This document shows positions 24,607 to 62,090 of a stretch of DNA of 64,000 nt, piece after piece. Source of the DNA: a virus (lineage: Duplodnaviria > Heunggongvirae > Uroviricota > Caudoviricetes); IMG/VR virus record IMGVR_UViG_3300005683_000050, positions 85,669 to 149,668 of that record; one strand, 5' to 3'. The notes below the pieces were generated by a model. The model was given only the letters and a program-made list of their open reading frames with translations, was not told the DNA's origin and did no database searches. The translations under genes were made by a program, and so were the position numbers. Numbering within the stretch: position 1 is the stretch's first letter; each line of letters opens with the position of its first letter.

Positions 24607-24612
24607 ATACAG

Positions 24613-24698
24613 AGGACGGGAAGAGAATCGAACTCTCAGAGCTTTTACACCCGCACGTTTAGCAAACGTGGTAGCACTACCAATATGCCAGCCCGTCC
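24613..24698 (-). tRNA. tRNA-Ser(GCT), type II
   Basis: acceptor GGACGGG/CCCGTCC, anticodon arm CACGT-TTGCTAA-ACGTG, long variable arm. Confidence 0.7.
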
Positions 24699-36322: not shown

Positions 36323-36528
36323 GTTTCACGCAACCACGTTCACTGTCAATTCGACCCTGACGTACTCATTATTACCTACCATCACAAATCCTATGATGAT
36401 AAAGTAATTTGTCATAAACAACACGGTGGTGTTGTGTATGGTAGCAATGTTGTATATTTTTATTGAGTCGCCATTACTGATTATACCAACTCTTTTATCA
36501 GTGAATAGGTCGTTTACTTTTTTAGAGG

Positions 36529-36601
36529 TGGACACAACGAGACTCGAACTCGTAACTGCTCTGTGCGATAGAGCGATTTTCCCAATTAGAACTATGCGCC
36601 C
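36529..36601 (-). tRNA. tRNA-Ala(CGC)
   Basis: anticodon arm GCTCT-ATCGCAC-AGAGC; G3:U70 pair in acceptor GGGCGCA/TGTGTCC. Confidence 0.55.
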
Positions 36602-36972: not shown

Positions 36973-37056
36973 CGAAAAGGATTGTATTTCGCAGATTACT
37001 TGTGGGAATCTGACATAACCAACGCCTTTAATTTGAAACGATAGCGTTACGTTTAG

Positions 37057-37134
37057 TGGAGACTACGAGATTTGAACTCGCCTGAACATTCTCATTGCAA
37101 GTGAGACTACCACCCCTAGCAGTACCAGTCCCCA
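37057..37134 (-). tRNA. tRNA-Ala(TGC)
   Basis: anticodon arm TCTCA-CTTGCAA-TGAGA; G3:U70; T loop TTCAAAT. Confidence 0.6.
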
Positions 37135-37946: not shown

Positions 37947-38019
37947 AGCATCAGACGAGACTTGAACTCGCGTTATTCTACTTGGCAAGCAGACGCTTTT
38001 CCAACTAAGCTACTGACGC
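37947..38019 (-). tRNA. tRNA-Gly(GCC)
   Basis: anticodon arm TCTGC-TTGCCAA-GTAGA; acceptor GCGTCAG/CTGATGC. Confidence 0.65.
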
Positions 38020-41225: not shown

Positions 41226-41710
41226 ATGTGGGGAATTATACGCACTCTCCCCATGAAACGTCAGGACTTTCCCTGCTGCCATACATTTCCTACGGGCAGA
41301 TTTCATCTAGAATTTTTCTGCGTGTCGCCGCATGTAGGACGGATTCGTATTCCCTATGTGCTATTACGCCAAAGGCGAGAGTTAACATTGCAATTACCTC
41401 TCACGCGTGTTGCGCGCTGTCCTTAGTATACGTCTCCTTTACGGATTGTTGCACCCACAATGGAGGTTTCGCATTATTCCGTATCGCTCTTACATCGTAT
41501 ACCATACGCCACTCTTTAGAGGATTGATGCTTTTAATCAAACCTTTAGGGAATAGAATTTGAGATTATCGTATCTCACTGCGGTTTGAGTCAATGCCCCG
41601 TTTCACGGGCGCTCCCGCACGACTATCTGTGTTTCGCCCCACTCGAATGGAGACGTATCTTGTGAGGTTACTCAGAATCGTTCTGTACAATGTCTCCGCC
41701 TTAGTCTCAG
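41226..41710 (-). other. ~480-nt non-coding spacer inside the tRNA array (candidate structured RNA)
   Basis: no ORF above 35 aa on the minus strand; several local hairpins (GGAGAC...GTCTCC, GCCCGTGAAACGGGGC); no tRNA fold found. Confidence 0.25.
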
Positions 41711-41781
41711 TGACCCGCTAGGGACTTGAACCCTATTCTCAAGCTTAAGAGGCTAGTGCATCGCCATCAATGCTTGCAGGT
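41711..41781 (-). tRNA. tRNA-Lys(CTT)
   Basis: anticodon loop CTCTTAA; D arm GCAT/ATGC; one stem mismatch. Confidence 0.55.
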
Positions 41782-41879
41782 CATGTGTCTTCTATCAGAC
41801 TGTCACGGTGTTTTTTGTGTTAACCCGACTCCCGCATTACGGGTGTCTTGCACGAGCCATCACCGTTTGGTTCGGTTAG

Positions 41880-41953
41880 TGCCTTCGGAGGGACTTGAAC
41901 CCACAACTCATCACTTAAAGGGCGAATACGCTACCAAATTGCGTCACGAAGGC
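41880..41953 (-). tRNA. tRNA-Lys(TTT)
   Basis: anticodon loop CCTTTAA; acceptor GCCTTCG/CGAAGGC. Confidence 0.55.
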
Positions 41954-41957
41954 ATAG

Positions 41958-42030
41958 TACCGACGAAGGGTCTCGAACCCCCATAATTCACGTTATGAGC
42001 ATGAAATGTCACCAATTGCATCACGTCGGC
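41958..42030 (-). tRNA. tRNA-Met(CAT) second copy (Met, fMet or Ile2)
   Basis: anticodon arm TCATG-CTCATAA-CGTGA. Confidence 0.65.
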
Positions 42031-42031
42031 A

Positions 42032-42250
42032 TTACAAAATTCTATCTAATGGTTTATGCCATGTCCAAGACAGGGCAGATGGATGCCCGATAAACAGTAT
42101 GACCACAACAAGATTTCCGATATATGATTCTCCACATATCGCCATTGCTCCACATTTGGGGCAGTCAATTGTCGCTCCGACCATTTTTGCAACAAATGGT
42201 AGTTTTGTTTCACAGAAAGCACACTTTATTGTTCTTTTCATTTTCTGCAA
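42032..42250 (-). CDS. zinc-ribbon protein 72 aa
   Basis: CAFCETK...CPKCGAM. Confidence 0.35.
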   Translation of the reverse strand: MQKMKRTIKCAFCETKLPFVAKMVGATIDCPKCGAMAICGESYIGNLVVVILFIGHPSALSWTWHKPLDRIL

Positions 42251-42302
42251 AATGTGGCATAGTCACAATGACGACGATTCAATTTCTGCAATCTACGAAT
42301 AA

Positions 42303-42331
42303 ATCATATCACAGAATCTGATTTTTGTCAA
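42303..42331 (-). promoter_or_regulatory. sigma70-type promoter TTGACA-17-TATGAT
   Basis: TCTGTGA extended -10. Confidence 0.55.
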
Positions 42332-42623
42332 GCAATATACCGCGCGCTACTGCGCGGTCAAACCAGTCGAAACTTTCCTGAACGATGTGGTCTCCAACTA
42401 TTGCCTCTTGACCATCAATCATAAACGAAAAAAAATCTGCCTGCAAGATTCCTTCAGAAATAGATGTAAAAACCATAGATATAAGGTTTGAGCTTGACGT
42501 ATTGTACTGAATGTTTTGAGAGACAGTTATCGCTCCAACAATTTCGTAAAAAATCTTTGTCAACTCAAAGTCCGAGAACGCTTTTCCAGTTCTAGTATAG
42601 TTTATAACAATCATTAATGCCAC
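42309..42623 (-). CDS. hypothetical protein 104 aa
   Basis: minus ORF. Confidence 0.3.
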   Translation of the reverse strand: MALMIVINYTRTGKAFSDFELTKIFYEIVGAITVSQNIQYNTSSSNLISMVFTSISEGILQADFFSFMIDGQEAIVGDHIVQESFDWFDRAVARGILLDKNQIL

Positions 42624-42627
42624 TCCA

Positions 42628-42700
42628 TACTGGGTGTCGGACTCGAACCGACTTCTATCGCGAGCGCGATTATGTTCTCCATACTAGCACCAATCCCAGT
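42628..42700 (-). pseudogene. tRNA-like element without anticodon arm (decayed tRNA or tRNA-mimic)
   Basis: good acceptor ACTGGG/CCCAGT and T arm GTCGG-TTCGAGT-CCGAC; the expected anticodon position holds a 5-bp hairpin with 4-nt loop (ATCGC-GCTC-GCGAT). Confidence 0.3.
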
Positions 42701-42816
42701 CCACTGTGACCCCTACATTCTTTCCTAACAGGGAAAGCGTCGTATCCTCAGTGGTATCGTCTTTCCGATTGTCGCCCCTTACTCTGCACTTTTGCAGGGT
42801 CGTGCAGCTGTTACAT

Positions 42817-42834
42817 ATGTCTGTGCGGAGACAA
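42817..42834. repeat. TGTCT-N6-AGACA hairpin (variant of the CTGTCT/AGACAG motif)
   Basis: ATGTCT-gtgcgg-AGACAA, 18 nt 3' of tRNA-Lys. Confidence 0.4.
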
Positions 42835-42851
42835 CCGCTATGTAACTGTAG

Positions 42852-42926
42852 TGCGCCCAGAGGGATTTGAACCCCCGACCTTATACTTAAAAGGTATCTG
42901 CTCTAACCAGACTGAGCTATGAGCGC
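42852..42926 (-). tRNA. tRNA-Lys(TTT) second copy
   Basis: anticodon loop CTTTTAA; D arm GCTC/GAGC. Confidence 0.55.
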
Positions 42927-42934
42927 GCAAACTA

Positions 42935-43111
42935 TCAAAACATATAGGAGAAAGCCGCCGCTACCGCGATTCCAACAGCCAGAATCATACAAATTGCCAG
43001 CAGTAAAAATGCCACGAACCGTAGCCATCCACGACTGTGCTTGTTAGCATATAATGCTACCGTCGCGTTTGCAATCAATGCAACCTCAAGTAAAAATGTT
43101 TGTGTGTCCAT
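42935..43111 (-). CDS. small membrane protein 58 aa (paralog family)
   Basis: MDTQTFLLEVALIANATVAL...; its own promoter upstream; below ORF-track cutoff. Confidence 0.3.
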   Translation of the reverse strand: MDTQTFLLEVALIANATVALYANKHSRGWLRFVAFLLLAICMILAVGIAVAAAFSYMF

Positions 43112-43117
43112 GACGCT

Positions 43118-43146
43118 ATGATACCACGAATTAAAAGTTTTGTCAA
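43118..43146 (-). promoter_or_regulatory. sigma70-type promoter TTGACA-17-TATCAT
   Basis: TCGTGG before the -10. Confidence 0.55.
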
Positions 43147-43156
43147 TAGCGAGATG

Positions 43157-43390
43157 TCAACGATACGCTAAATATAAATTGTAAAACAGAGCTCCAACAA
43201 AAACAACTGTGGAAGTAGCCGCGAAAAGCAAATACAAAGCCCCTAGCATTTCCAAGAATCTTTCAACGTGTCGCATTTGCTCCGCCTTGACCTTTCGGGT
43301 AAGGCTTGCGACCAATACACACATCATAGAAAGAGCTCCGAACAAAATTACAGTTTGGATTATTGGAAGTAATTCTATCACTGAAACCAC
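43157..43390 (-). CDS. small membrane protein 77 aa
   Basis: two TM helices. Confidence 0.35.
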   Translation of the reverse strand: MVSVIELLPIIQTVILFGALSMMCVLVASLTRKVKAEQMRHVERFLEMLGALYLLFAATSTVVFVGALFYNLYLAYR

Positions 43391-43557
43391 GCAATCATAC
43401 TGGAAACAGCTACAGAGAACGCCATCCCGACAGAAGCTATCATCAGGATAAGAGTGCCAATTTTAATGAACGATACGCTGGTGTGCATGTTCAAATACAT
43501 AGAAAAAGCACCAACAATCATAAATGACGCAAAAAGTATAAATGTATTTATGTCCAT
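43378..43557 (-). CDS. small membrane protein 59 aa (paralog family)
   Basis: MDINTFILFASFMIVGAFSM...; its own promoter upstream. Confidence 0.3.
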   Translation of the reverse strand: MDINTFILFASFMIVGAFSMYLNMHTSVSFIKIGTLILMIASVGMAFSVAVSSMIAWFQ

Positions 43558-43563
43558 GACTAC

Positions 43564-43592
43564 ATCATATCACAAAACGTAAAACTTGTCAA
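43564..43592 (-). promoter_or_regulatory. sigma70-type promoter TTGACA-17-TATGAT
   Basis: TTGTGA extended -10. Confidence 0.55.
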
Positions 43593-43750
43593 GTACCGAA
43601 ATAAAAATGCCTGTGGTCACATCACAGGCAATCACAAGGGAGGCGAATCGGCTGGTTGTGTGACTCAACCCAATCTCCACCTGCAAGAATCGAGCTTGCA
43701 CGTTTATGTTAACAGCATAACATACTACCGTTATATGAAGGTGGAATAAA

Positions 43751-43770
43751 GTGGGGACATGTGTCCCCAC
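43751..43770. terminator. hairpin terminator GTGGGGACA-TG-TGTCCCCAC
   Basis: perfect 9-bp palindrome right after the SSB stop, followed by a T-rich tract on the minus strand. Confidence 0.5.
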
Positions 43771-43784
43771 ACAAAACTACTCAA

Positions 43785-44192
43785 CTAAAAAGGCAATTGT
43801 TGCGGCTCTGAACCCTCTTCCCCCTCAGTATCCTTCTTCGGGTTGGAGAACTGGATACTATCGGCGGTAACTTCAAATGCCGCACCATATGTTCCGTCTT
43901 TGCGCTGAAAAACACGCGGACAGCCAGTTTCAAGGTCAAAGTCTAAACGCGCTGTCACAGCAACTTGCGCCCCTTTGGTGACATATTGGTTTACAATTTC
44001 AGCCCTCTTTCCAAGAACTGTAACGTTCAACCAAAGTGGATAATCCCTGCCACTTTCGTCATTCTTGCCCTTTGCCCACTGGTTAACCGCGACACCAAGC
44101 CTGGTAATCGCAGTTCCTTTTTCAGAATAACGCATCTCTGGGTCACGAGTGACATTGCCAACAAACGTAACGTTCAGAAAACTAAGCCCCAT
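43785..44192 (-). CDS. ssb: single-stranded DNA-binding protein
   Basis: OB-fold-like N-terminus (MGLSFLNVTFVGNVTRDPEMRY...) and acidic C-terminal tail ...EEGSEPQQLPF. Confidence 0.7.
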   Translation of the reverse strand: MGLSFLNVTFVGNVTRDPEMRYSEKGTAITRLGVAVNQWAKGKNDESGRDYPLWLNVTVLGKRAEIVNQYVTKGAQVAVTARLDFDLETGCPRVFQRKDGTYGAAFEVTADSIQFSNPKKDTEGEEGSEPQQLPF

Positions 44193-44301
44193 ATTGTTAA
44201 ATCCTTTTCACGATACGAGAAAATCTTTTTGTTTTTGTTTTTTAATTCGTGTAATCGTATCGTCTTTTTTGATGCGGTCATAATAATAATGACCGACTCA
44301 G

Positions 44302-44382
44302 TGTCCTTAGAGGGACTCGAACCCCCACGCCTATTGGCACGACGTTCTAAGCATCGCATGTCTACCGTTTCACCATAAGGAC
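44302..44382 (-). tRNA. tRNA-Leu(TAG), type II
   Basis: anticodon arm CGATG-CTTAGAA-CGTCG; 13-nt variable arm. Confidence 0.7.
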
Positions 44383-44542
44383 ATTATTTCGCGCTGACTG
44401 GTTTCGATTTGCAAATCTCACAGTCCATTTGTTACGATACGCCAGAGCAGAAGAGTATGTACACTATTCTTTCTATATATGACACTCGCTTCACTCTACA
44501 TACCATACTTGACTCTTGGAAATATCCCCCTACCGCAAAACC

Positions 44543-44571
44543 ATTATATCACAAGTTTATTGCTTTGTCAA
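44543..44571 (-). promoter_or_regulatory. sigma70-type promoter TTGACA-17-TATAAT
   Basis: TTGTGA extended -10; upstream of tRNA-Leu(TAG). Confidence 0.6.
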
Positions 44572-44699
44572 GCTGTTTATACTCCAGCTACGAGTCCAAT
44601 TGGAATGCGTTGTAATGTGATTCTTGCGGACACATCTTCCGTTATCCCTCAGAATGACGGAGAGACGAAAATCATCGCGGGTCAACAAGGTGTCCATAT

Positions 44700-44990
44700 T
44701 TAACACGCCTCAAGTGAAGTAATCAGAAATGCCGCGTCCTCAAGTGTTGCGATATGTATAATGTAAGTGTCCACATGTCCGTATGCGCCAAAAACATCAT
44801 AATTCTTAATAAGGAACGGATAGTCTTTTGGGGGATTATCGCCAGACAATCTATTCTGGTCTATTTCCTGTTCTTTGTAGAACTTATTTAAGTCTTCAAT
44901 AGACGAGATTAAAGTCCATCCGTTATATTCTGTCATTTTATTTATCTCCAGTAAAAATGAAAAGTTAACACAACACTGGGCATGTGTCAA
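44700..44990 (-). CDS. hypothetical protein 96 aa
   Basis: minus ORF. Confidence 0.3.
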   Translation of the reverse strand: MTHAQCCVNFSFLLEINKMTEYNGWTLISSIEDLNKFYKEQEIDQNRLSGDNPPKDYPFLIKNYDVFGAYGHVDTYIIHIATLEDAAFLITSLEAC

Positions 44991-45033
44991 ATCATTCTTT
45001 CTTCAGCGCATTAATCACCATCGGTTAAGATTA

Positions 45034-45116
45034 AGGAGAGGAAGGGATTTGAACCCTCAAGACTTTCGTTCGCTCGCTTTCAAGGCGAGTTCCGTCACCA
45101 ATCGGATTGCCTCTCC
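45034..45116 (-). tRNA. tRNA-Ser(TGA), type II
   Basis: anticodon arm CTCGC-CTTGAAA-GCGAG; acceptor GGAGAGG/CCTCTCC. Confidence 0.7.
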
Positions 45117-45316
45117 GTACCGCTAAAAATTGGGTCTGCAATTATATATCTACACAACACGAGAATGGTTGTTTTCGATACAACAGTTTCAGAGTGACTA
45201 ATTCCAAAACTTTGAGCCCAAACCTTTCGCCATGCCAGTCTAGCATTAGCTGGGTTTGGTTTGTGCTTTCCACTACGGGAAAGGTGTTTGCCAATTTCAT
45301 CACACTCTCGCGTTGC

Positions 45317-45649
45317 TTAAAAATTCTCACCCATCTGCTTAATCATATTACAGTTAGCGCAGAGGGTTTGGTATCCTTCTGGAAGTCCAGACTTAATCAG
45401 GTATTCGTAGAAATTCCATCCAGCGAAATGTTTTCCACCGTTCGCCCGACGCTCAGAACTGCCGTTGTTATGGATATGGTCAATCTGTAGGGCGCGTATA
45501 TCAGAGAATCCGCACCGACAACACACATTGCCATACCTATCCAGAACTATCATCTTTACTCTTCTGCGTCGTTCACGAGAATAACTTCTCGTCTTTTCTG
45601 GATACTTTGCTCGGTATCTTGCATTCGCAGATTTTCTGTCTGATTTCAT
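45317..45649 (-). CDS. HNH endonuclease
   Basis: CCRCGF...IDHIHNNG...CANCN. Confidence 0.6.
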   Translation of the reverse strand: MKSDRKSANARYRAKYPEKTRSYSRERRRRVKMIVLDRYGNVCCRCGFSDIRALQIDHIHNNGSSERRANGGKHFAGWNFYEYLIKSGLPEGYQTLCANCNMIKQMGENF

Positions 45650-45705
45650 TCTACACTAATCTACAAAAACTACATTCAACATCACACAGACAAGAATTTG
45701 TCAAG

Positions 45706-45780
45706 CTGCCCCACAAGGACTTGAACCTTGAGCCTTCATGTTAACAGCATGTTGCTCTGCCAATTGAGCTATAGGGCAAT
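45706..45780 (-). tRNA. tRNA-Asn(GTT)
   Basis: anticodon loop CTGTTAA; D arm GCTC/GAGC. Confidence 0.6.
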
Positions 45781-46161
45781 GATATGAGCATAGTCGGATT
45801 CCCCACCCGACGCCTCTTGCTTTACATCGCAAACGGTACGAAACTCCGTAACATTTTCGATACGTCTGCTCATCTCAGCAAGAATCTTACATTCTCTATC
45901 GGCATCTACCCTCAGACGACATGCGCTTTGTTGTCGCCCTGCGACAGAAATTCTGTGACTTGGTAGTGTTTGACGGATTGCAGTCCGCAAGCCGAACCGC
46001 TCTGGTTACGCAGAGTTATGCTCATACTGATTTAATACGCCAGGTGTCACCCAATATCGGTTGCGACTCTTGCTCCACCTCAATCGCATATTTTTATTTA
46101 TGAAGCTTACGATACTGACGATTTTTGCGGTTTGACTGCCGCATCATAGTCTGACGTATTA

Positions 46162-46233
46162 CAGGGACGCTAGGGATTGAACCTAGAAATTTTGCTTCAA
46201 AGGCAAATGTCTTGCCAATTAAACGACATCCCT
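46162..46233 (-). tRNA. tRNA-Gln(TTG)
   Basis: anticodon arm TTTGC-CTTTGAA-GCAAA; A1:U72 acceptor. Confidence 0.65.
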
Positions 46234-46451
46234 ATCTGGTGGGGATTGAGAGAATCAAACTCACCCTAACGCCGCCGCGCCGTTACTCAATACACTATCT
46301 CCCCATAAGCCGTTCTTTTCACGGCTGTCATTCCGTATCTCTAACAATTCTCACGGAAACGGAGATAAGAGTAGTTTTTACGTCTACCACTCAGACGTAT
46401 CGTTATGTTGGTGATAAGCCATCTGCGCCTTGTACTATAGTTAGCGCATAG

Positions 46452-46532
46452 TGCCGTTGGGCGGATTTGAACCACCACATCCGAAGAGACTCTTTTACAG
46501 AGAGCTGACCTCACCAAATGGACAGCAACGGC
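46452..46532 (-). tRNA. tRNA-Tyr(GTA), type II
   Basis: anticodon arm GCTCT-CTGTAAA-AGAGT; long variable arm. Confidence 0.7.
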
Positions 46533-46574
46533 ATTAACCATAATAGTACTTATCCTCAATGACCTCACACTCTT

Positions 46575-46603
46575 ATACTATCACAAATTGTCAGATTTGT
46601 CAA
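46575..46603 (-). promoter_or_regulatory. sigma70-type promoter TTGACA-17-TAGTAT
   Basis: TTGTGA extended -10; upstream of tRNA-Tyr/Gln/Asn. Confidence 0.55.
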
Positions 46604-46808
46604 GTTTCTTCCTATTGTATATCTTTCGAGTTTTTCTTTTCATGTTGGTGTACATTTTCGCTTCGATATACAGATTTGAACGCTTGTCGTTGAATAACGG
46701 AACACCATGACCGCGTTCAAATTCAATTGTAAGGTGATTCAGTAGACCGACATTGACTTTCGGTTTACCGCCCATGTTCTTTAGTTTAAGAACGCATTTA
46801 TAGCACAT
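46581..46808 (-). CDS. small basic protein 75 aa
   Basis: minus ORF between tRNAs; its 3' end contains a promoter, so it is uncertain. Confidence 0.25.
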   Translation of the reverse strand: MCYKCVLKLKNMGGKPKVNVGLLNHLTIEFERGHGVPLFNDKRSNLYIEAKMYTNMKRKTRKIYNRKKLDKSDNL

Positions 46809-46809
46809 A

Positions 46810-46880
46810 CAGGGACACGTGGACTTGAACCAAGAACTCTTGTGTCAGAAACAAGTGTTTTCCCATTAAACCATATCCCT
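46810..46880 (-). tRNA. tRNA-Gln(CTG)
   Basis: anticodon arm CTTGT-TTCTGAC-ACAAG. Confidence 0.65.
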
Positions 46881-47225
46881 ATCTTCTAATTTTTTCTCTA
46901 ACTCTGCCAACAGCCATAATGCAGCTAAGTATATATTTCCAGCCGCGTTGTTTTCTGGTTTCTTCTCCAACTCAAGCATCTCCAAAGCCGCTAAAGTGCC
47001 TGATACTTGTCCTTGACGGACAAGTTTAACGTGATTTATCACGATTTGCGATATACTCGTACTCATCGTAGAAATTATCTATCCTTAAAGGCAGGAACGG
47101 AAACACAAAGCCAACTTTACTCTCCGTTCTTTTACCTCTATGCCGACAAGCGTAGCACCGAATTTTGCGATAAAATAACTATCCAGTATTGTACGATGTC
47201 TTGCCTGTCAAGAGTTATAGATGCA

Positions 47226-47296
47226 AGCCCCCAATCAGACTTGAACTGATATTAACGCTTTACGAAAGCATCGTTCTGCCATTAAACTATAAGGGC
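47226..47296 (-). tRNA. tRNA-Thr(CGT)
   Basis: anticodon arm ATGCT-TTCGTAA-AGCGT. Confidence 0.65.
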
Positions 47297-47460
47297 GAAA
47301 TATCTCCATTAGATACATACGTAGAATCTTTTGTCGGCACAGCAGCTTTATACCACTCGTTACCATCAAAGTTGTAGTATCCATCACCTTGCAATCGAAT
47401 TGGACTACCCTTAAACTTCATCGCCTTACTTTCTCGAATCACTAAGATTATTTTTACACA

Positions 47461-47531
47461 AGCCCTGTCTGAGAATCGAACTCAGGTCTAATGATTACAA
47501 GTCAATCATAATGCCACTATACGAACAGGGC
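47461..47531 (-). tRNA. tRNA-Thr(TGT), short D-loop
   Basis: anticodon loop CTTGTAA on a 4-bp stem with one mismatch; acceptor GCCCTGT/ACAGGGC. Confidence 0.5.
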
Positions 47532-47815
47532 AGATTCTAATTTTTACCCCTTAACGATTCAATGATTCCTTGAATGCCCCAAGAAATAGCAAAAATCAAC
47601 ACCAGAGCAATAGCCCAGTTTTCAGACAGCCAGTTGAGAATTTCCATTATTGCCTCGCAATCATTATTGCACCGCAAATTAGCGATGCCAATAGAATAAA
47701 AAGCAGCACCGCAAAGGGATGCTTTATCAACAACCACCCGAACCAACCTTGTTGCTTGATTTGATTGAGAGCTTCTTCCCTAGATTCAACATCTGTATTG
47801 CGTTCTATTGACATA

Positions 47816-47887
47816 TTCCGACGACAGGGGTCGAACCTGTATGACATGTTCTTCAGACATGCGTATTACCACATCTACCACATCGGA
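47816..47887 (-). tRNA. tRNA-Phe(GAA)
   Basis: anticodon arm CATGT-CTGAAGA-ACATG. Confidence 0.7.
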
Positions 47888-47953
47888 GTAATGCGACCAT
47901 TTCGTATCTCAGACTACTCTGGTCGCTATAGGCGGTTCTCTGCCGTCAAAAAC

Positions 47954-47982
47954 ATTATACAACAACACTCAGGATTTGTCAA
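47954..47982 (-). promoter_or_regulatory. sigma70-type promoter TTGACA-17-TATAAT
   Basis: upstream of tRNA-Phe. Confidence 0.6.
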
Positions 47983-48367
47983 GTCTATAAATCATCCTGT
48001 CTCCATTGCCCATCGCCACAGGACGAAATCCGTATTTTTCGTATACCTCTATTGCTTTTTTGTTCCCCATACGAACCGTGAGGTAAACAGGATTATCTAC
48101 CTCAGACAAGAACATTCCTAAAAGTTCCGAGCCTCGCCCGATTCTACAGCTTGCCATGTAGTTTATGTAATACGAGCCTTTTGGTATCCTGTATCCATTG
48201 ATAGATACCGAGCGTTTATACACACTAAACAACAATACCGCACCATGATGGAATCTGTATTGATTCGCCGTGATATGCGGTATTATGTGTGAGCGTCTTA
48301 CGTGAGACAGCTCAGACTTAGAGTGGATAATGTAATAAAGATAATCTAATACTCTACTGTCTGACAC
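47969..48367 (-). CDS. GNAT-family N-acetyltransferase
   Basis: RIGRGSELLGMF (acetyl-CoA motif A) and AIEVYEKYGFR. Confidence 0.55.
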   Translation of the reverse strand: MSDSRVLDYLYYIIHSKSELSHVRRSHIIPHITANQYRFHHGAVLLFSVYKRSVSINGYRIPKGSYYINYMASCRIGRGSELLGMFLSEVDNPVYLTVRMGNKKAIEVYEKYGFRPVAMGNGDRMIYRLDKS

Positions 48368-48593
48368 ACGAAATGCTCTCCACTTTCATAAATACCGAGA
48401 CAACGTAACACCTATTGCCATTATCTTCAAACCACGAATATGACTCAGCCCCAATAGGATTTTCAACAACCAGGCGATAGATTCGAGTGGTTGGTATTAG
48501 CTTTGCCTCTGCCTCTTTAAGCGGGTAGACGCTAAAATATATTGTGGCGACAAAGGCGAGCATTACAATAAGTGTGACAATTAATTTTTTCAT
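48354..48593 (-). CDS. secreted/membrane-anchored small protein 79 aa
   Basis: N-terminal signal/TM segment. Confidence 0.3.
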   Translation of the reverse strand: MKKLIVTLIVMLAFVATIYFSVYPLKEAEAKLIPTTRIYRLVVENPIGAESYSWFEDNGNRCYVVSVFMKVESISCVRQ

Positions 48594-48596
48594 AAG

Positions 48597-48668
48597 TGTC
48601 AGTGACGGGAATCGAACCCGCGTTAACAGATTGAGGGTCTGTTGTGCTTTCCGTTACACTACACCGAC
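48597..48668 (-). tRNA. tRNA-Glu(CTC)
   Basis: anticodon arm ACAGA-CCCTCAA-TCTGT. Confidence 0.6.
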
Positions 48669-49156
48669 AATATACCAAGTCCGTATGTTGTGTTAACTAC
48701 ATACATACTTAGGTCTAGCTCTTTTACTGCCTGAGATACTTTTCCGTCGTGCGCGTCATGCAAAACCATCATTCCGCCTTGTTTTAAGTGAGACATTGAA
48801 AACTCTATATCTCTTTTTACGGATGGGGTTCTGTGGTCTCCGTCTATAAAAATAAGGTCGAACTTTACACTCGGAGCAATCAGACCGACATCGGACAGAC
48901 GGATAACTCTTGTTGGCAGATTGATATTTTTGTGAACCCAAATATCTGTGTCAACCGTTGTAATGGACTTTGCTTTCATTTCCATGTACCTTGTGGAAAT
49001 GCCAAGACCAGTTCCTATCTCAAGAACATCTTTATCAATAGCTAGTATCGAAAGAACCTCTCCCTCTCTCGGAGCGATAGAGATTCTAGGCAGTCCAGTT
49101 GAATGTTCTCCGCTATCGCCAGGATGCGTAAACGAACCATTTGGCAAACTAATCAT
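48659..49156 (-). CDS. class I SAM-dependent methyltransferase
   Basis: VLEIGTGLGISTRYM glycine-rich SAM motif I; DLIFIDGDH. Confidence 0.55.
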   Translation of the reverse strand: MISLPNGSFTHPGDSGEHSTGLPRISIAPREGEVLSILAIDKDVLEIGTGLGISTRYMEMKAKSITTVDTDIWVHKNINLPTRVIRLSDVGLIAPSVKFDLIFIDGDHRTPSVKRDIEFSMSHLKQGGMMVLHDAHDGKVSQAVKELDLSMYVVNTTYGLGILSV

Positions 49157-49220
49157 ACAGTAACAAATTCTCGAAACACTATGTTTCCTTAAAAGGAATC
49201 ACGGCGTTTCGATTCGTGAG

Positions 49221-49308
49221 TAGGGTAGGGGAGGCTCGAACTCCCATAAATCCAATTATGCACTAACTGTTTAGAAGACAGTGCCAGTACTACCCCCAGT
49301 ACTACCCC
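49221..49308 (-). pseudogene. aberrant tRNA-like element (Arg-TCT-like hairpin, no D arm, 12-nt tandem duplication)
   Basis: acceptor GGGGTAG/CTACCCT and T arm GGGAG-TTCGAGC-CTCCC; hairpin ACTGT-CTTCTAA-ACAGT, also a degenerate copy of the AGACAGT motif; CAGTACTACCCC is duplicated at the 5' end. Confidence 0.3.
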
Positions 49309-49398
49309 ATAAGGATAAATATGAATAAGTGTAAAAACTGCAACAAAGAAACAAATAGCGCATCTAAAATTCCACCATCGGAGAATAACCTGAAACAG

Positions 49399-49481
49399 TG
49401 CGGACGACAGGATTTGAACCTGCAATGTCTTGTGACACAACACTCTGAATGTTGCGCGTCTGCCAATTTCGCCACGTCCGC
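49399..49481 (-). tRNA. tRNA-Leu(CAG), type II
   Basis: anticodon arm CAACA-TTCAGAG-TGTTG; paralog of 49623-49705. Confidence 0.7.
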
Positions 49482-49602
49482 GTTGTTGCAGGACTGACTG
49501 GATTTTAACCATCAAGGTTATCAACCACGATACTCGTTGCAGAGCCGCTATACCTGATAAGGGAATCGTTGCATCTTCTTTTTCGCCACAGTCCTACAGT
49601 TT

Positions 49603-49620
49603 ACTGTCTATTCAGACAGT
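49603..49620. repeat. CTGTCT-N4-AGACAG palindromic hairpin motif
   Basis: ACTGTCT-attc-AGACAGT, 2 nt 3' of tRNA-Leu(GAG). Confidence 0.6.
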
Positions 49621-49622
49621 AG

Positions 49623-49705
49623 TGCGGACGACAGGATTTGAACCTGCAATGTCTTTCGACACAACGTTCTCACCGTTGCACGTCTACCAATTTCGCCACG
49701 TCCGC
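49623..49705 (-). tRNA. tRNA-Leu(GAG), type II
   Basis: anticodon arm CAACG-GTGAGAA-CGTTG. Confidence 0.7.
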
Positions 49706-49857
49706 GTTTATTTTTAATCTTTGGCTTATGTTTCTTTTTCTTTTTCAACCTTTTATTTTCTGTTGATACGTGTTTATTTTTACCGCCGATAGTGGTATGT
49801 GGATACTCGCTATGGTTTGGTTGCCAATTCCACGGAAACTTAAGTTTTTCCATCATA

Positions 49858-49929
49858 TAGCGGAGAGGGTAATCGAAACCCTGACCTCGACGTTATGAGC
49901 GTCGCGAGCTGCCACTGCTCTACTCCGCA
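49858..49929 (-). tRNA. tRNA-Met(CAT) third copy (1:72 mismatch; initiator- or Ile2-like)
   Basis: anticodon arm CGACG-CTCATAA-CGTCG; D arm GAGC/GCTC; U1-U72 mismatch at the acceptor end. Confidence 0.6.
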
Positions 49930-49930
49930 G

Positions 49931-50004
49931 TACCCCTGAAGAGAATCGAACTCCCACAAACGCAGTTCCGAAGACTGCTGCTCTATCCATTGAGCTACAA
50001 GGGC
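49931..50004 (-). tRNA. tRNA-Arg(TCG)
   Basis: anticodon arm GCAGT-CTTCGGA-ACTGC. Confidence 0.6.
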
Positions 50005-50083
50005 ATACTTACATTACTTGAACAACTTGAATCGCTTAACCCGAAATCCCCAAACTTTCTTGCGACGAATTTTAGGTCTTCGC

Positions 50084-50356
50084 TTACGCAGTGTGACTGC
50101 CATCTTTTTCATCTCCATTCATATACGTTATGACACTACTGGATATATGTATTGCATTGAATACTTGATTACAAAGCAAAGACAATCCAAAACAAGCCAA
50201 AACTGCATATAAATTACTTAGTTCGGGGAACAGACTACCGTACTTGTAAAGAACCGAGAATAGAATAAAAACTGCGGCAATCCCGAACTTTGACTTAAGT
50301 GCGACAAGTACCGATGCCGCAATATAGAAAAACAAAAATCGTAAAACATTTTTCAT
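50084..50356 (-). CDS. membrane protein 90 aa
   Basis: three hydrophobic helices. Confidence 0.3.
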   Translation of the reverse strand: MKNVLRFLFFYIAASVLVALKSKFGIAAVFILFSVLYKYGSLFPELSNLYAVLACFGLSLLCNQVFNAIHISSSVITYMNGDEKDGSHTA

Positions 50357-50373
50357 GTCTTGTTATCCTTGAG

Positions 50374-50447
50374 TGGTCGCCGCAGGAATCGAACCTGCCT
50401 AAAACTGCTTATCAGACAGCCGCCTTCGACCAGACAGCCAGACGACC
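50374..50447 (-). tRNA. tRNA-Ile(GAT)
   Basis: anticodon loop CTGATAA; T arm GCAGG-TTCGATT-CCTGC. Confidence 0.65.
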
Positions 50448-50451
50448 AGAA

Positions 50452-50775
50452 TTACTTCACCAACCTTACTACATCAATCAAAAGGTCAATCACAACAAAA
50501 ACAACAAAAACGGTTCGGTAGATTTCCAAAAAGTCAGAGTTCCACCCCAAAAGCATCTCGAAAGTCCATATAATAAGAGAAACCACTCCGCCGACTATCA
50601 AGACTGAAATAGCAAGCTTAACCAGATACAGGAACACATAAAACAACACAACCAACAAAGAACCAATCAACCTGAAAAGTGCAGAAAACATATCGCCAAT
50701 CAAACCGATTAACGAGTCCGTTGATTCGGACAAAAAACTAATCAGAGAGTCAATTCCAGATTTAATCTGCACCAC
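50452..50775 (-). CDS. membrane protein 107 aa
   Basis: TM-rich. Confidence 0.3.
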   Translation of the reverse strand: MVQIKSGIDSLISFLSESTDSLIGLIGDMFSALFRLIGSLLVVLFYVFLYLVKLAISVLIVGGVVSLIIWTFEMLLGWNSDFLEIYRTVFVVFVVIDLLIDVVRLVK

Positions 50776-50809
50776 AATAATCCCCCGAATGAATGCTCGC
50801 TACGAAATC

Positions 50810-50838
50810 AATATACCACACTTATTTCTTTTTGTCAA
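50810..50838 (-). promoter_or_regulatory. sigma70-type promoter TTGACA-17-TATATT
   Basis: TGTGG before the -10. Confidence 0.5.
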
Positions 50839-51058
50839 GTATTTCCAGATAAGTCCAGAACAGAACTTCCTCTGTTTCATATCCCATATCTGTATACGAA
50901 AACCATACTTCGTCAAATTCCGAATAAAACCCAACGAAATATGAGCTGTCTTTTGTGCAAATCAACAAGGCATTGCTATACTTGTTTCCAGCATTCTCAT
51001 AGCACAACGGCATATCCAATGGTGGATAAAACAATTCAAGCGTTATAGTTTTTTTCAT
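50822..51058 (-). CDS. hypothetical protein 78 aa
   Basis: minus ORF. Confidence 0.3.
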   Translation of the reverse strand: MKKTITLELFYPPLDMPLCYENAGNKYSNALLICTKDSSYFVGFYSEFDEVWFSYTDMGYETEEVLFWTYLEILDKKK

Positions 51059-51061
51059 AAG

Positions 51062-51163
51062 TGGACGCAGTGGGATTCAAACCCACTCACCGTTGCAACG
51101 GTATAATCAAAATTCGCTCGGTTTCAACCGAAACGCCGAGTCAAACGGCACACGTTCGCGCCC
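51062..51163 (-). tRNA. atypical 102-nt tRNA-like gene (unusual TTTGAAT T-loop; body does not fold canonically)
   Basis: acceptor GGGCGCG/TGCGTCC, T arm GTGGG-TTTGAAT-CCCAC, variable-arm-like hairpin ACCGTTG-CAACGGT; no 5-bp/7-nt anticodon arm found. Confidence 0.3.
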
Positions 51164-51168
51164 AAAAG

Positions 51169-51253
51169 AGGGGAGTATGGGATTTGAACCCATGTGCCTT
51201 TTACAGCCACTCGTTTTCGAGACGAAGCCAATTAACCTCTCTGGCAACTCCCC
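51169..51253 (-). tRNA. tRNA-Ser(CGA), type II
   Basis: anticodon loop CTCGAAA; long variable arm; acceptor GGGGAGT/ACTCCCC. Confidence 0.65.
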
Positions 51254-51639
51254 TAATGACCATCCCACGCTTTCAGCGAGTCCGAAACCGACTTTGCGAT
51301 TACGTCTCTCTCCTGAAATAAAATTGCGGAATAACTTCCGATAAAACAAATAGCTACGATTAAAAACGAGTCCTGAAATTCAATTGAACCCAAGATAAAT
51401 GTCGCGGTCATGCAGACAATGACAGACGCCATCATAGTCCCAGCGATGATTGACACACAATCCACAACAAGAATCATCAGAACAGACATCACAAACAGAA
51501 AAACTGCAACAAGTATCTTCATTTTCTTATCCTGTGAGAAAATCTTTCCATTAGTGTCATAACGGCAAATGCCATAACGATACACAGGAATACAACAATC
51601 ATTGCAATAACAAATTGGGTCAATAACCCAGACGCCCAA
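51253..51639 (-). CDS. membrane protein 128 aa
   Basis: TM-rich. Confidence 0.3.
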   Translation of the reverse strand: MGVWVIDPICYCNDCCIPVYRYGICRYDTNGKIFSQDKKMKILVAVFLFVMSVLMILVVDCVSIIAGTMMASVIVCMTATFILGSIEFQDSFLIVAICFIGSYSAILFQERDVIAKSVSDSLKAWDGH

Positions 51640-51944
51640 AACAACGCCCCAACAAGAATACTTTTGCGTTATTCATTTTGTCTAATCCATTTTCGCGACA
51701 GTGCTTATTGGATGAGCAACAAAGATAACATTTCCACCAATAAGGTCTCCGTTAATTCTAACATATCCGCCAGATATGTTTATCCCTGAACCGACTTCCT
51801 CTTTCACATAAAACGGGTTTGTTAGTTCAGTGCCACAACTTACGCAAGTTATGGTTGGATTGTCCTTAGTAAACCCACTAAGAGTAAGAGTTCCAGAGCA
51901 TTGCGTACACCGTAACGCGGTTGGTTTGTTTCATCCATGACTTG

Positions 51945-51973
51945 AGTATACCATAGAACACAATCTTTGTCAA
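51945..51973 (-). promoter_or_regulatory. sigma70-type promoter TTGACA-17-TATACT
   Basis: downstream of the MTase gene, pointing toward a small unannotated Cys-containing ORF and the membrane-protein genes. Confidence 0.5.
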
Positions 51974-51978
51974 GAGAC

Positions 51979-52998
51979 CTATATTTCTATTATTTTGTCC
52001 AAGTCCATACCAATTCTGTCAGCTGCCAAGCAAGCAAATTCTGGGTTAATTTCAAACCCAACATAGTTACGCTTTTTTCTTTTCGCAGAAAGCAAAGTTG
52101 TTCCAGACCCAGCAAACGGGTCTAATACAATGTCGTCCTCGTCAGTCAAAAGTTCGATGAAAAAGTCTGGAATCCCAAGAGGGTAAATGGAGTGATGCGG
52201 TATATTTCTATTATCACCAGTTGCCACAGACAATACGTCTCGCAACATAGTCCCCCCTTTGAATTCAACAATAACAAATCCGTTCTTTTGAATCTCTTTG
52301 ACTCTTCCTCCATCGAACCCCCCAAACGGCAATGTGTGTTCTCCAAGAATCTTCATACGGAAATCTGTTATCTCGCCGCGATGAAGTTTATCCATTACAT
52401 CCTCTAGTGCCTTCAGTGCATTATCCTTTTGGATTAAAGTCAAAGAACTGCGTTCTATGATTTTATAATAACGCAGTCCTTTGCCCTTTCCGAATTTCGG
52501 AGGCTCTTTGCTAGGAGACGTAAAACGCTCATAATGATACTTGTAGTCTTTAGTCAATGCAAAGTGGTAGATAGGCTCAAATGAAGAAACCATCCTACGC
52601 TTATTTGGCTGAGGCGAGTTGTTTTTCTTTGCCCATACCACTTCGTTTACCATCCTAATTCCCAAGTTATCTACGACGCCAATTGCAAACCGATGAGGCA
52701 CAAGCAACATTCCTTCCCTGTGTTTATCCCCAAGATTAACAACAATACTGCCAGTAGGTTTAACTTTAGGAATGACGACCCTCATAAATTCCCACAAGGA
52801 ATTCAGATAAGCGTCCATTTCTTTTATCATCCCAACCCCAATCGTTCCCCTTTTTAGAAAATAGGGAGGGGATGTCATTACAAGGTCAACAGAACTGTCT
52901 GGCACGTTAGACATGCCAGACAGACTATCACCTAAATATATTCTGTTATAAAGGAACTGGGACATATTCAATCTCACAAACACCACTGACGCACGCAA
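51979..52998 (-). CDS. DNA methyltransferase (amino-MTase, N4-C/N6-A)
   Basis: DLVMTSPPYF motif IV and VLDPFAGSGTT motif I. Confidence 0.7.
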   Translation of the reverse strand: MRASVVFVRLNMSQFLYNRIYLGDSLSGMSNVPDSSVDLVMTSPPYFLKRGTIGVGMIKEMDAYLNSLWEFMRVVIPKVKPTGSIVVNLGDKHREGMLLVPHRFAIGVVDNLGIRMVNEVVWAKKNNSPQPNKRRMVSSFEPIYHFALTKDYKYHYERFTSPSKEPPKFGKGKGLRYYKIIERSSLTLIQKDNALKALEDVMDKLHRGEITDFRMKILGEHTLPFGGFDGGRVKEIQKNGFVIVEFKGGTMLRDVLSVATGDNRNIPHHSIYPLGIPDFFIELLTDEDDIVLDPFAGSGTTLLSAKRKKRNYVGFEINPEFACLAADRIGMDLDKIIEI

Positions 52999-59355: not shown

Positions 59356-60354
59356 TTATTCGTCCTCGTTCTCGTCAACCGTCTTGTCTTTCAGTAGGTA
59401 CGAGTCTGAAATGTACTTTAGAATTACCCTACCAATCTTTGGGTCTCTACGCTCTTGAACGGGTCGGATAACAACACCCTCTCGGATATTGTCTCCTATT
59501 GTGCTTTTTCCATTTGCCAGACTCTTGACCTCTTCAATGGAAAACGGCATTACTCGCAAAACTGGAACAAGCTGAGCGTCATGTCTGTGCGCCAGAACAA
59601 TCATCTCCGTAAAATCAAGGTAATTCCCATCAACCATAATGTCGAATATCCTGAATCCGACACCATCTCTAACGTCGTAGGAAAATCCCTTTTGTACCTT
59701 CGCGCCGTAAATCTCTCCAAACAAAATAACGTGTTTGTGGGATTCCGAGAGAGAACCCAAAAGACTCTGTACCCAGTCTAGTTCAAATGGCATCCAGTAG
59801 ACATTGTTGCCTTCTTTGCGTCTGAGATTGTGGCTGCCAGCCATCCTCTCGCCGTCTATGTATGCCACGCGAGCATTTGTTCCGTGAATTTTCTCGGTAA
59901 CACAAACGCTCTCGCCCTCTGAAATAACTTGCGGGAAATTTCTTAGATTCTCAATGTCAGTGTATTTCAGGAATCGCGCGTCGTCAGTTTCGGTATCCCC
60001 ACCACTTAGGCGTAACGGAGATATATACTTGGTGCATCCGTAAAGGTCTGCCAGATTGTCTCCAACCTGAGAACCTGAAGGAGCAATTTGTACAAATCCA
60101 AACGAAGGCTCTCCGCGCAATGCTACAGCACGGACGCGTTGTTTGCTCAGGTATGGCGTAACTCCCATCTCATCAGAAACGCTTTGCGGCAAAACCGTAT
60201 CTGGCGGAAAATACACAACCTTATCTCCGACATTCAAAGTTCCCTTTTTGACAACAACCTGCCATCCAAGAATGTTTATAATTTCCAATCTGTCCGCGCT
60301 GGGATGAACCATTATTTCCGAGACTTCGACAACTGGAACTATTAGTGTTGACAT
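59356..60354 (-). CDS. ATP-dependent RNA ligase (Rnl family)
   Basis: nucleotidyltransferase motif I VTEKIHGTNARV (KxHGxN, typical of RNA rather than DNA ligases); 332 aa. Confidence 0.65.
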   Translation of the reverse strand: MSTLIVPVVEVSEIMVHPSADRLEIINILGWQVVVKKGTLNVGDKVVYFPPDTVLPQSVSDEMGVTPYLSKQRVRAVALRGEPSFGFVQIAPSGSQVGDNLADLYGCTKYISPLRLSGGDTETDDARFLKYTDIENLRNFPQVISEGESVCVTEKIHGTNARVAYIDGERMAGSHNLRRKEGNNVYWMPFELDWVQSLLGSLSESHKHVILFGEIYGAKVQKGFSYDVRDGVGFRIFDIMVDGNYLDFTEMIVLAHRHDAQLVPVLRVMPFSIEEVKSLANGKSTIGDNIREGVVIRPVQERRDPKIGRVILKYISDSYLLKDKTVDENEDE

Positions 60355-61344: not shown

Positions 61345-61560
61345 TCACAATAGATTCTCAAAATCATTTATGATGGAAGCTAGTTGCTCTGGCGGAAGAC
61401 CGACCATCTCGGAAATTTTCTGCATGGTTTGGATGTCTGGTTTCTCCACATACCTGAGAACGCCATATATTCCGAAAAGAATCATGGTTGCCTCTGGATG
61501 TTTTACATGTTCTATTTTTTCTAATAACTCAAATAAATTTTCCATATTTTTTACCTCCAC
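61345..61560 (-). CDS. hypothetical protein 71 aa
   Basis: minus ORF. Confidence 0.25.
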   Translation of the reverse strand: MEVKNMENLFELLEKIEHVKHPEATMILFGIYGVLRYVEKPDIQTMQKISEMVGLPPEQLASIINDFENLL

Positions 61561-61666
61561 TGGGAACGGGGTACTCGAAACCCAAGCAGATTATCAATCC
61601 GCTCCAACCGATTTCCAGTCGGTGACTGCTCGCCTGTCAGTTTCATTCCCAAAGAATTTACTGCCA

Positions 61667-61936: not shown

Positions 61937-62090
61937 TCTTTTTTACCTCTTGGGTATCTTCTGTCCAACTTGCATCCGTAACTGTCGAATTTCCACCCTC
62001 TTCAATCAAGACAATAATCTGTAACATCAATCGAGACATAGCCTCTTCGTCCATATTGCTTTTTACGTGAAAATCAAACACTGCGTTCAT
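61872..62090 (-). CDS. hypothetical protein 72 aa
   Basis: minus ORF overlapping its neighbour. Confidence 0.25.
   Translation of the reverse strand: MNAVFDFHVKSNMDEEAMSRLMLQIIVLIEEGGNSTVTDASWTEDTQEVKKNAKAKPKDVQRIKRNSGTSRK

Follow-up and report, generated by a model that had tools for sequence, protein, structure and literature searches.

An aberrant tRNA-Arg(UCU) and two tRNA-derived elements without a usable anticodon loop in the tRNA array of a metagenomic phage

The tRNA cluster of phage T4 includes two stable RNAs of about 120-140 nucleotides (nt), species 1 and 2 (rnaC and rnaD), that stand among its transfer RNA (tRNA) genes. Mitochondrial mRNAs released by tRNA punctuation are leaderless. 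Elements of the mascRNA type fold like tRNAs but with a reduced anticodon loop; through their intact acceptor/T-arm they attract RNase P and RNase Z, which give the flanking RNAs defined ends. Among phage tRNA arrays, that of Xanthomonas phage XacN1 has been described as containing a pseudogene, one of 29 tRNA-like sequences per terminal repeat (PMC5852040). Here we describe three atypical tRNA-like elements, termed E1, E2 and E3, in the tRNA array of a 64,000-nt stretch of phage DNA (the window; positions 85,669 to 149,668 of IMG/VR record IMGVR_UViG_3300005683_000050). Our preferred explanation, to which we give about even credence, is that the three comprise one working but aberrant tRNA (E2) and two non-decoding relics derived from tRNA genes (E1 and E3).

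A near-complete tRNA set in a large phage, with a few members rejected or flagged by software, is shared with XacN1-type arrays, whereas the defects found here are specific ones, a clean change from a 7-nt to a 4-nt loop in E1 and an Ala-type shell around foreign hairpins in E3, and both elements lie flush with their neighbours. As with T4 species 1 and 2, E1 and E3 would be small RNAs of unknown function located among phage tRNA genes and co-processed with them; the sizes differ, and the likeness is one of description, membership not being claimed. The array shares the layout of punctuated transcripts in having ATG codons 1-3 nt after tRNAs, but mascRNA-type elements and mitochondrial punctuation are eukaryotic or organellar. 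To our knowledge, such a layout has not been reported in a phage array.

Structure of the three elements

The three elements were found at the following positions, which are those given in an earlier note on this DNA, and lie on the minus strand as do all other tRNAs and genes.

42628-42700, minus strand: E1, a 73-nt tRNA-like gene (full-length RF00005 alignment, 19.9 bits)
49221-49308, minus strand: E2, tRNA-Arg(UCU), 88 nt (ARAGORN score 108.3; RF00005 32.4 bits)
51062-51163, minus strand: E3, a 102-nt tRNA-Ala-derived shell with a rearranged core (sequence comparison with the array tRNAs)

ARAGORN was run in default, intron, tmRNA (transfer-messenger RNA) and mitochondrial modes, and Rfam matches to the tRNA model RF00005 were judged against its curated cut-off of 29 bits. 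ARAGORN called 45 tRNAs with scores of 100.9-122.6, every one of them on the minus strand, in the interval from 24.5 to 61.7 kb; a 46th, tRNA-Cys(GCA), lies just beyond the window edge on the opposite strand. The set covers 41 anticodons, the four-codon boxes showing a G34/U34/C34 pattern from which only Val-CAC, Gly-CCC and Arg-CCG, all C34 species, are missing. None of the tRNAs of this array encodes CCA.

E2 was identified by ARAGORN as tRNA-Arg(tct), and it exceeded the RF00005 cut-off when its region was searched alone, with the Rfam model aligned in the same fold as the ARAGORN drawing. It was absent from the Rfam whole-window listing at gathering threshold, and a search of 8.9 kb by E-value returned only a sub-threshold match to the tRNA-Sec model (24.9 bits, cut-off 47). 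As two programs folded it as a tRNA, E2 leaves the list of merely tRNA-like sequences, although it is structurally poor. The parts of E2 are as follows.

49285-49308, minus strand: tandem repeat, GGGGTAGTACTG twice (TRF period 12, 2.1 copies, 100%)
49284-49299, minus strand: D arm, stem CTGG/CTGG (ARAGORN drawing)
49266-49282, minus strand: anticodon arm ACTGT CTTCTAA ACAGT (sequence and ARAGORN)
49246-49265, minus strand: variable region TAGTGCATAATTGGATTTAT, 20 nt, A/U-rich (model alignment and ARAGORN)

The earlier note had reported Arg(TCT)-like arms and a tandem duplication, both of which stand, but the absence of a D arm that it also reported was the product of a manual mis-fold. The first copy of GGGGTAGTACTG supplies the acceptor 5' strand and positions 8-12, and the second contributes the D loop together with the last base of the D-stem 5' strand and the greater part of the 3' strand of that stem. 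Only when the repeat is read as acceptor plus D arm does the anticodon UCU (TCT at 49273-49275) fall at canonical positions 34-36, within a loop (CUUCUAA) that has U33 and the usual 7 nt on a 5-bp stem. The acceptor has seven pairs, including G1.U72, and the T loop, TTCGAGC, is canonical. The 4-bp D stem consists of two G-C and two G.U pairs, and the D loop, GGGUAGUA, is without G18G19. The variable region amounts to a 17-nt insertion relative to the tRNA model; it is unpaired in the ARAGORN drawing and has no stable stem, with four A-U pairs at most, and E2 does not have the 3-7 bp paired variable arm of a class II tRNA. Class II tRNAs with unexpected anticodons include nematode nev-tRNAs and bacterial allo-tRNAs. 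E2 resembles these in having an Arg anticodon on a tRNA with a variable region of about 20 nt, but its extra segment is an A/U-rich insertion and altered charging is unsupported. Among the 45 tRNAs, E2 has the widest energy gap between cloverleaf and minimum-energy fold, 10.1 kcal/mol, with tRNA-Tyr close at 9.5. With respect to internal repeats, the otherwise good tRNA-Phe (55.5 bits) carries a perfect 9-nt tandem repeat, GATGTGGTA twice, in its 5' half (47867-47884, minus strand), which indicates that a repeat in the acceptor/D region is not unique to E2.

E2 is the only Arg-UCU gene in the window and in an extra 9 kb examined, and AGA is the commonest Arg codon, accounting for 152 of the 507 Arg codons (30%) in 28 confident genes. 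Because it is the sole gene of its kind for the commonest Arg codon, and because a random 12-nt duplication would rarely restore the exact canonical spacing, we consider the chance that E2 is functional to be somewhat better than even, in which case it is the phage's aberrant tRNA-Arg(UCU) and probably decodes AGA. For annotation there is a caution here, in that a single program may call, miss or mis-fold the odd members of large phage arrays: the marginal E2, the only gene for the commonest Arg codon, was called by ARAGORN and missed by the Rfam whole-window gathering search. ARAGORN tRNAs Ser-GCU, Ala-CGC, a second Ala-UGC and Ser-GGA were likewise absent from that listing, a behaviour similar to that of E2 until its region was searched alone; these four may be atypical or simply lost to speed filters.

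24612-24698, 36527-36601, 37056-37133 and 61560-61651, minus strand: these four ARAGORN tRNAs, absent from the Rfam whole-window gathering-threshold listing

E1 was aligned by RF00005 from end to end at its exact coordinates when searched alone, with a score below the cut-off; rescaled to one family over the whole window, this score corresponds to an E-value of about 0.005, so the match is not due to chance. No credible call was made on E1 by ARAGORN in any of the four modes. Its parts are as follows.

42629-42635, minus strand: acceptor 3' strand, with discriminator A at 42628 (sequence)
42636-42652, minus strand: T arm GTCGG TTCGAGT CCGAC, fully canonical (sequence)
42657-42670, minus strand: hairpin ATCGC-GCTC-GCGAT at the anticodon-arm position (sequence and model alignment)
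42672-42690, minus strand: D arm GUG(c)U/ACAU with loop AGUAUGGAGA (RF00005 alignment)

The good acceptor and T arms ascribed to E1 by the earlier note were borne out, the acceptor (ACTGGG/CCCAGT) having six Watson-Crick pairs, with the seventh either an A/A mismatch or, in the model alignment, U-A beside a bulged A. The 5-bp hairpin with a 4-nt loop that had been noted in place of an anticodon arm was also confirmed; the stem is perfect, and the loop, GCUC, has 4 nt where the model has 7, so that E1 cannot decode. A recognizable D arm had been missed: its stem comprises G.U, U-A, G-C and U-A pairs with one bulged C, and its loop retains A14, G18G19 and A21. U8 is present and the variable loop has 4 nt. 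E1 is tRNA-derived, has no close paralogue in the array and, as judged from the model alignment, has probably kept the ability to fold into the L-shape. The spacer between tRNA-Lys(UUU) and E1 (42701-42850, minus strand) is 150 nt of non-coding sequence with several hairpins (z = -2.5 versus shuffles) and no Rfam match; it may be a structured RNA that has escaped annotation, or it may belong to a longer transcript that includes E1.

E3 gave no RF00005 match at E-values up to 10, and no tRNA, tmRNA or other Rfam model was significant. What ARAGORN returned for E1 or E3 was limited to forced folds, either under the 80% threshold or, in the form of a 62-nt call of mitochondrial type, out of register with the ends of E3. 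Its features are as follows.

51157-51163, minus strand: acceptor 5' strand GGGCGCG, pairing with TGCGTCC at 51063-51069
51070-51086, minus strand: T arm GTGGG TTTGAAT CCCAC, 14 of 17 positions identical to the tRNA-Ala(GGC) T arm
51089-51102, minus strand: palindromic hairpin ACCGT-TGCA-ACGGT (sequence)
51134-51150, minus strand: second T-arm-like hairpin TGCCG TTTGACT CGGCG (hairpin scan)
51117-51140, minus strand: alternative long hairpin CTCGG..CCGAG, overlapping the second T-arm-like hairpin (folding)

The acceptor has seven of seven pairs, including G3.U70 and G7.U66, with the discriminator A73 at 51062, and is identical to that of tRNA-Ala(CGC) at 13 of 15 positions. Together with the T-arm identity, this agreement means that the likeness of E3 to a tRNA is not due to chance. 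Besides E3, G3.U70 occurs in the window only in the four Ala tRNAs and in tRNA-Gly(GCC). As the earlier note had it, E3 is 102 nt long, with a TTTGAAT T-loop and a further hairpin, and has no standard anticodon arm, that is, no arm with a 7-nt loop; in the T loop, U replaces C at position 56. The palindromic hairpin is separated from the T arm by 2 nt. If it is divided as ACCG-TTGCAA-CGGT, its 6-nt loop gives it the look of an Ala-UGC anticodon arm that is one loop base short (the Ala-UGC loops are CTTGCAC and CTTGCAA), and no other copy of it was found in the window. The place of the D arm is taken by about 50 nt of other hairpins. Five T-arm-like hairpins lie outside called tRNAs on this strand, the second one of E3 included, compared with 2.7 in total expected from the shuffled strand. 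E3 has no close paralogue in the array and cannot decode. We read it as a mosaic, apparently a gene of the tRNA-Ala(UGC) type in which insertions and deletions have remade the core.

Two further candidates were set aside. Neither E1 nor E3 is a missing tRNA-Cys, since tRNA-Cys(GCA) is present beyond the window and the TGCA of E3 stands in an Ala-type context. Repeated protein-binding sites were also rejected for the palindromic hairpins, of which no further copies were found beyond chance.

Junctions with reading frames and transcription context

A gap of 4 nt separates E3 from the preceding tRNA-Ser(CGA), and one of 3 nt separates it from the ATG of a downstream 78-codon open reading frame (ORF); E1 is followed directly at its 3' end by a GGAG ribosome-binding site and, 13 nt on, by a 101-codon ORF.

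50822-51058, minus strand: 78-codon ORF after E3 (codon-usage score 0.18)
42309-42614, minus strand: 101-codon ORF, 13 nt after E1 (codon-usage score 0.28)
58570, 49858, 48597, 47816, 46810 and 51062, minus strand: six junctions of a tRNA or E3 with an ATG 1-3 nt after the discriminator

An ATG 1-3 nt past the discriminator that opens an ORF of at least 55 codons was observed at 6 of 47 junctions, compared with 0.09 in shuffles (maximum 2 in 3,000). These are the junctions after tRNAs Arg-GCG, Met-CAU, Glu-CUC, Phe and Gln-CUG and after E3, with ORFs of 55-82 codons. The junction of E3, the discriminator A followed by CTTATGAAAAAA, is identical to that between tRNA-Glu(CUC) and its 79-codon ORF. 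On a scale where real genes scored 0.21 +/- 0.06 and the wrong frame -0.40, codon usage was gene-like in five of the six ORFs (0.11-0.18) and ambiguous in the 55-codon ORF after tRNA-Phe (0.02). The 82-codon ORF after Met-CAU runs through tRNA-Leu(GAG) and its real extent is doubtful.

RNase Z cuts CCA-less precursors directly after the discriminator. As no tRNA of the array encodes CCA, such cuts would leave nearly leaderless mRNAs, and the layout of the junctions suggests that these are punctuated by tRNAs. For RNase P, RNase Z and the CCA-adding enzyme, the acceptor/T-arm helix is nearly sufficient. Because this helix is what these enzymes recognize, and because E1 and E3 have kept it, both elements, which are located on the coding strand in apparent transcription units, may still be cut out of the transcript like tRNAs. 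A cut after the discriminator of E3 would give the 78-codon ORF a leader of 3 nt, the same layout as at the five real tRNAs. Structurally both elements fit what is expected of a processing signal, namely an intact acceptor/T-arm, a defective anticodon region and an RNA boundary. These observations suggest that E3, and less directly E1, may survive as a cutting signal for RNase P and RNase Z. Such a role at tRNA/ATG junctions, for which the support is indirect, lies beyond the options of the earlier note.

Should E1 and E3 prove to be processed, they would show that the top half of a dead tRNA can be retained by a phage as a signal for cutting RNA; along with the six start codons located 1-3 nt after tRNA 3' ends, this would point to a bacterial virus whose genes are expressed from nearly leaderless, tRNA-punctuated mRNAs. 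Should they be plain relics, the finding is an ordinary one.

Matches to promoter consensus sequences were found upstream of both units.

43118-43146, minus strand: promoter match TTGACA-17-TATCAT (consensus match only)
51945-51973, minus strand: promoter match TTGACA-17-TATACT (consensus match only)

The first is the nearest upstream match of a unit consisting of a 58-codon ORF, tRNA-Lys, the 150-nt spacer, E1 and the 101-codon ORF, and the second lies upstream of a unit of small ORFs, tRNA-Ser(CGA), E3 and the 78-codon ORF. Near-perfect sigma-70 matches (TTGACA-17-TATAAT, often with an extended TG) occur every 0.5-1 kb on the minus strand of 41500-52000, the scan counting 40 versus 22.9 +/- 4.2 in shuffles.

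Alternative explanations and related arrays

For E1 and E3, a relic of array turnover is the most likely reading and the most economical one. Both would be remnants of redundant isoacceptors after duplication and loss in the array. With four Ala genes in the array a fifth would be redundant, which is consistent with E3 as a relic, and the C34 species missing from the set are the kind of dispensable gene that could decay, which would fit E1 as a relic. The earlier note had offered pseudogenes from array turnover as one option for all three elements; this is likely for E1 and E3, whose tRNA ancestry is evident and whose decoding is lost, but less so for E2, which folds as tRNA-Arg(UCU). It had also named folding by software as ordinary tRNAs as a result that would count against it, and this was observed with E2, by ARAGORN and Rfam, but not with E1 or E3, which scored below threshold or not at all.

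Searches for related arrays yielded little. Megablast of positions 42000-52000 against 50,697 phage records gave no match, and BLAST of E1 and E3 against phage records returned generic T-arm matches only. IMG/VR scans with the ribonucleotide reductase (RNR), SSB and a 165-aa methyltransferase found only distant loci (RNR at most 64% identity) in which arrays were absent or unrelated. Protein searches with RNR and the DNA methylase brought up relatives in fragmentary form only, namely L090 and three pieces of 1.6-5.5 kb (L087, L088 and L089), the nearest having 69-71% identity in RNR and 64% in the methylase. A metagenome scan with the methylase alignment returned the L089 contig again and otherwise at most 43% identity. 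The order in L089 (methylase, ORF, tRNA-Met, tRNA-Ile), the one fragment that extends downstream of the methylase, differs from that in the window. These comparisons show that turnover of the array is fast; they say nothing firm on selection on E1 or E3. A second assembly of the same DNA (Logan SRR2106649) was 100% identical over 9.9 kb and offered no population variation.

Several observations weigh against our preferred explanation. Neither E1 nor E3 has mismatched helices, unlike what long neutral decay would leave, and they would have to be young relics or under structural constraint. Processing by RNase P and RNase Z is argued from general knowledge of these enzymes, and the small ORFs at the junctions, as well as those adjoining E1 and E3, have no homologue in PHROGs or Pfam. 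No E3 was present in the 600 nt available of the nearest relative fragment (methylase 64%), and no orthologous array was found in which conservation or decay of E1 and E3 could be measured. E2 is a poor tRNA: its D loop lacks G18G19, two of the four pairs in its D stem are G.U, its fold gap is the largest and it carries a 17-nt unstructured insertion, and it could be dead.

E1 and E3 might instead be deliberately anticodon-less shells, transcribed, cut by RNase P and RNase Z, and serving as punctuation that frees nearly leaderless mRNAs of small ORFs or as acceptor-end mimics that soak up host factors acting at tRNA 3' ends, which we regard as unlikely; if true, they would be the bacterial-virus counterpart of mitochondrial tRNA punctuation and mascRNA-type elements. 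In the mimic version, doubtful to a like degree, E1 and E3 are selected, non-decoding and CCA-tailed tRNA mimics that act as sponge, decoy or RNA-repair partner, with E3 possibly alanylated via G3.U70, and their targets would be host factors at the tRNA body or acceptor end (3'-end toxins, AlaRS, EF-Tu). The perfect pairing of all helices, the 5-bp hairpins with 4-nt loops beside an intact T arm in both elements, and the lack of a close paralogue that would mark either as a recent dead duplicate are in keeping with selection; E1 retains, in its D and T loops, the bases from which the tRNA elbow is built, and in E3 the AlaRS identity set is complete (G3.U70 and A73). The phage is also heavy in tRNA biology, with 46 tRNAs, RtcB, an Rnl-type ligase and a Thg1-like enzyme, and phage tRNAs that counter tRNA-targeting defences are on record (PMC10264068). 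However, conservation lends no support, the single relative fragment that covers the neighbourhood being without E3; E3 lacks C56 and a D loop and would not form a normal elbow; and no Rfam RNA family matched. The decoy for anticodon nucleases suggested in the earlier note fits poorly, since the anticodon loop that these nucleases recognize is the very part missing from E1 and E3, and a decoy would work only for binders of the acceptor end or tRNA body. Nor was support found for the primer and regulatory roles suggested there.

That all three elements, E2 included, are dead genes without a role, left behind by slippage, illegitimate recombination and small deletions as the array turned over rapidly, is likewise improbable in our view. 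E2 has a perfect 12-nt duplication of slippage type as well as its insertion, no tRNA listed in the whole-window scan has an RF00005 score as low as its 32.4 (lowest 33.0), and its fold gap is the worst; E3 is mosaic-like with two T-arm-like hairpins, and the content and order of the array differ sharply from those of its nearest relatives. The standing of E2 as sole cognate gene for AGA and the exact anticodon spacing given by its repeat argue against this, as do the tight packing around E3 (gaps of 4 and 3 nt) and a junction type common to five real tRNAs.

A tmRNA-type tRNA-like domain, or a module like YrlA or Y-RNA working with RtcB, was considered for E3 and perhaps E1, and is largely refuted and very improbable. 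E3 shares with the tmRNA domain an Ala-type acceptor with G3.U70 and A73, a T arm and the absence of an anticodon arm, and the gene for RtcB is 19 kb distant; a Ro/TROVE protein, whose cellular counterpart works with a tRNA-like RNA partner, is present in some jumbo phages (PMC7824862). However, the ARAGORN tmRNA mode was empty even at a relaxed 80% threshold, the best tmRNA-family score was 10.3 bits (cut-off 84) and covered the T arm only, and 102 nt, compared with 260-400 nt for tmRNA, is too short for a tag reading frame and pseudoknots, both of which E3 lacks. No Y-RNA or YrlA match was obtained at E-values up to 10, and neither TROVE nor SmpB was found among 38 ORFs scanned against Pfam, in which the structural-gene end was partly covered.

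Least probable of all is that E1 or E3 reproduces the 3' end of a host tRNA gene and constitutes the phage's half of an integration site. In favour of this proposal, attachment sites of phages commonly duplicate the acceptor 3' strand and T arm of host tRNAs. Mis-annotated tRNA gene fragments in prokaryote genomes are also on record (PMC9897764), but the proposal is not supported: both elements have a matching 5' acceptor strand, superfluous in an attachment site, no integrase was found among the scanned ORFs, the 22-nt 3' end of E3 had no exact match in 185,579 GTDB species genomes, and the 21-nt 3' end of E1 had two GTDB matches, none at an ARAGORN-called tRNA, the one inspected (L123) being without tRNA-like context. 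In IMG/VR the 3' ends of E1 and E3 had no exact match.

In a distantly related phage (IMG/VR contig 3300009702_000037, L010) a 111-nt element was observed at 7760-7870, with seven of seven acceptor pairs, a canonical T arm and an apparent 8-nt anticodon loop, called by neither ARAGORN nor Rfam. It lies 9 nt upstream of a class II tRNA-Ser(UGA) at 7880-7965 that was missed by ARAGORN and detected by the tRNA-Sec model (36 bits).

Phage context and additional observations

The window corresponds, in reverse complement, to a segment of the 149,834-bp contig ERZ761584 NODE_4 (ENA) from a metagenomic phage, and its minus strand holds almost all long ORFs. Its genes include portal, prohead protease, large terminase, RNR, ThyX, RtcB, an Rnl-type RNA ligase and a Thg1-like enzyme; the nearest counterparts of the RNR are Chloroflexota enzymes, with about 66% identity.

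The Thg1-like 3'-5' nucleotidyltransferase (PF04446, 1.2e-28), RtcB and the Rnl-type RNA ligase form a tRNA-repair kit beside the array.

62087-62818, minus strand: Thg1-like enzyme (by PF04446)
31319-32533, minus strand: RtcB
59356-60354, minus strand: Rnl-type ligase

In tRNA-His, G-1 appears to be genome-encoded (G at 57327, with C73). tRNA-Gly(GCC) (37947-38019, minus strand) carries the AlaRS identity pair G3.U70 with U73, and its charging might be ambiguous. The large terminase (14434-16824, minus strand) contains a LAGLIDADG_3 domain at residues 283-336, upstream of the ATPase and nuclease domains, that has the appearance of an inserted intein or homing endonuclease, and its C-terminal half has 49% identity to the terminases of Methanothermobacter phages psiM100 and psiM2.

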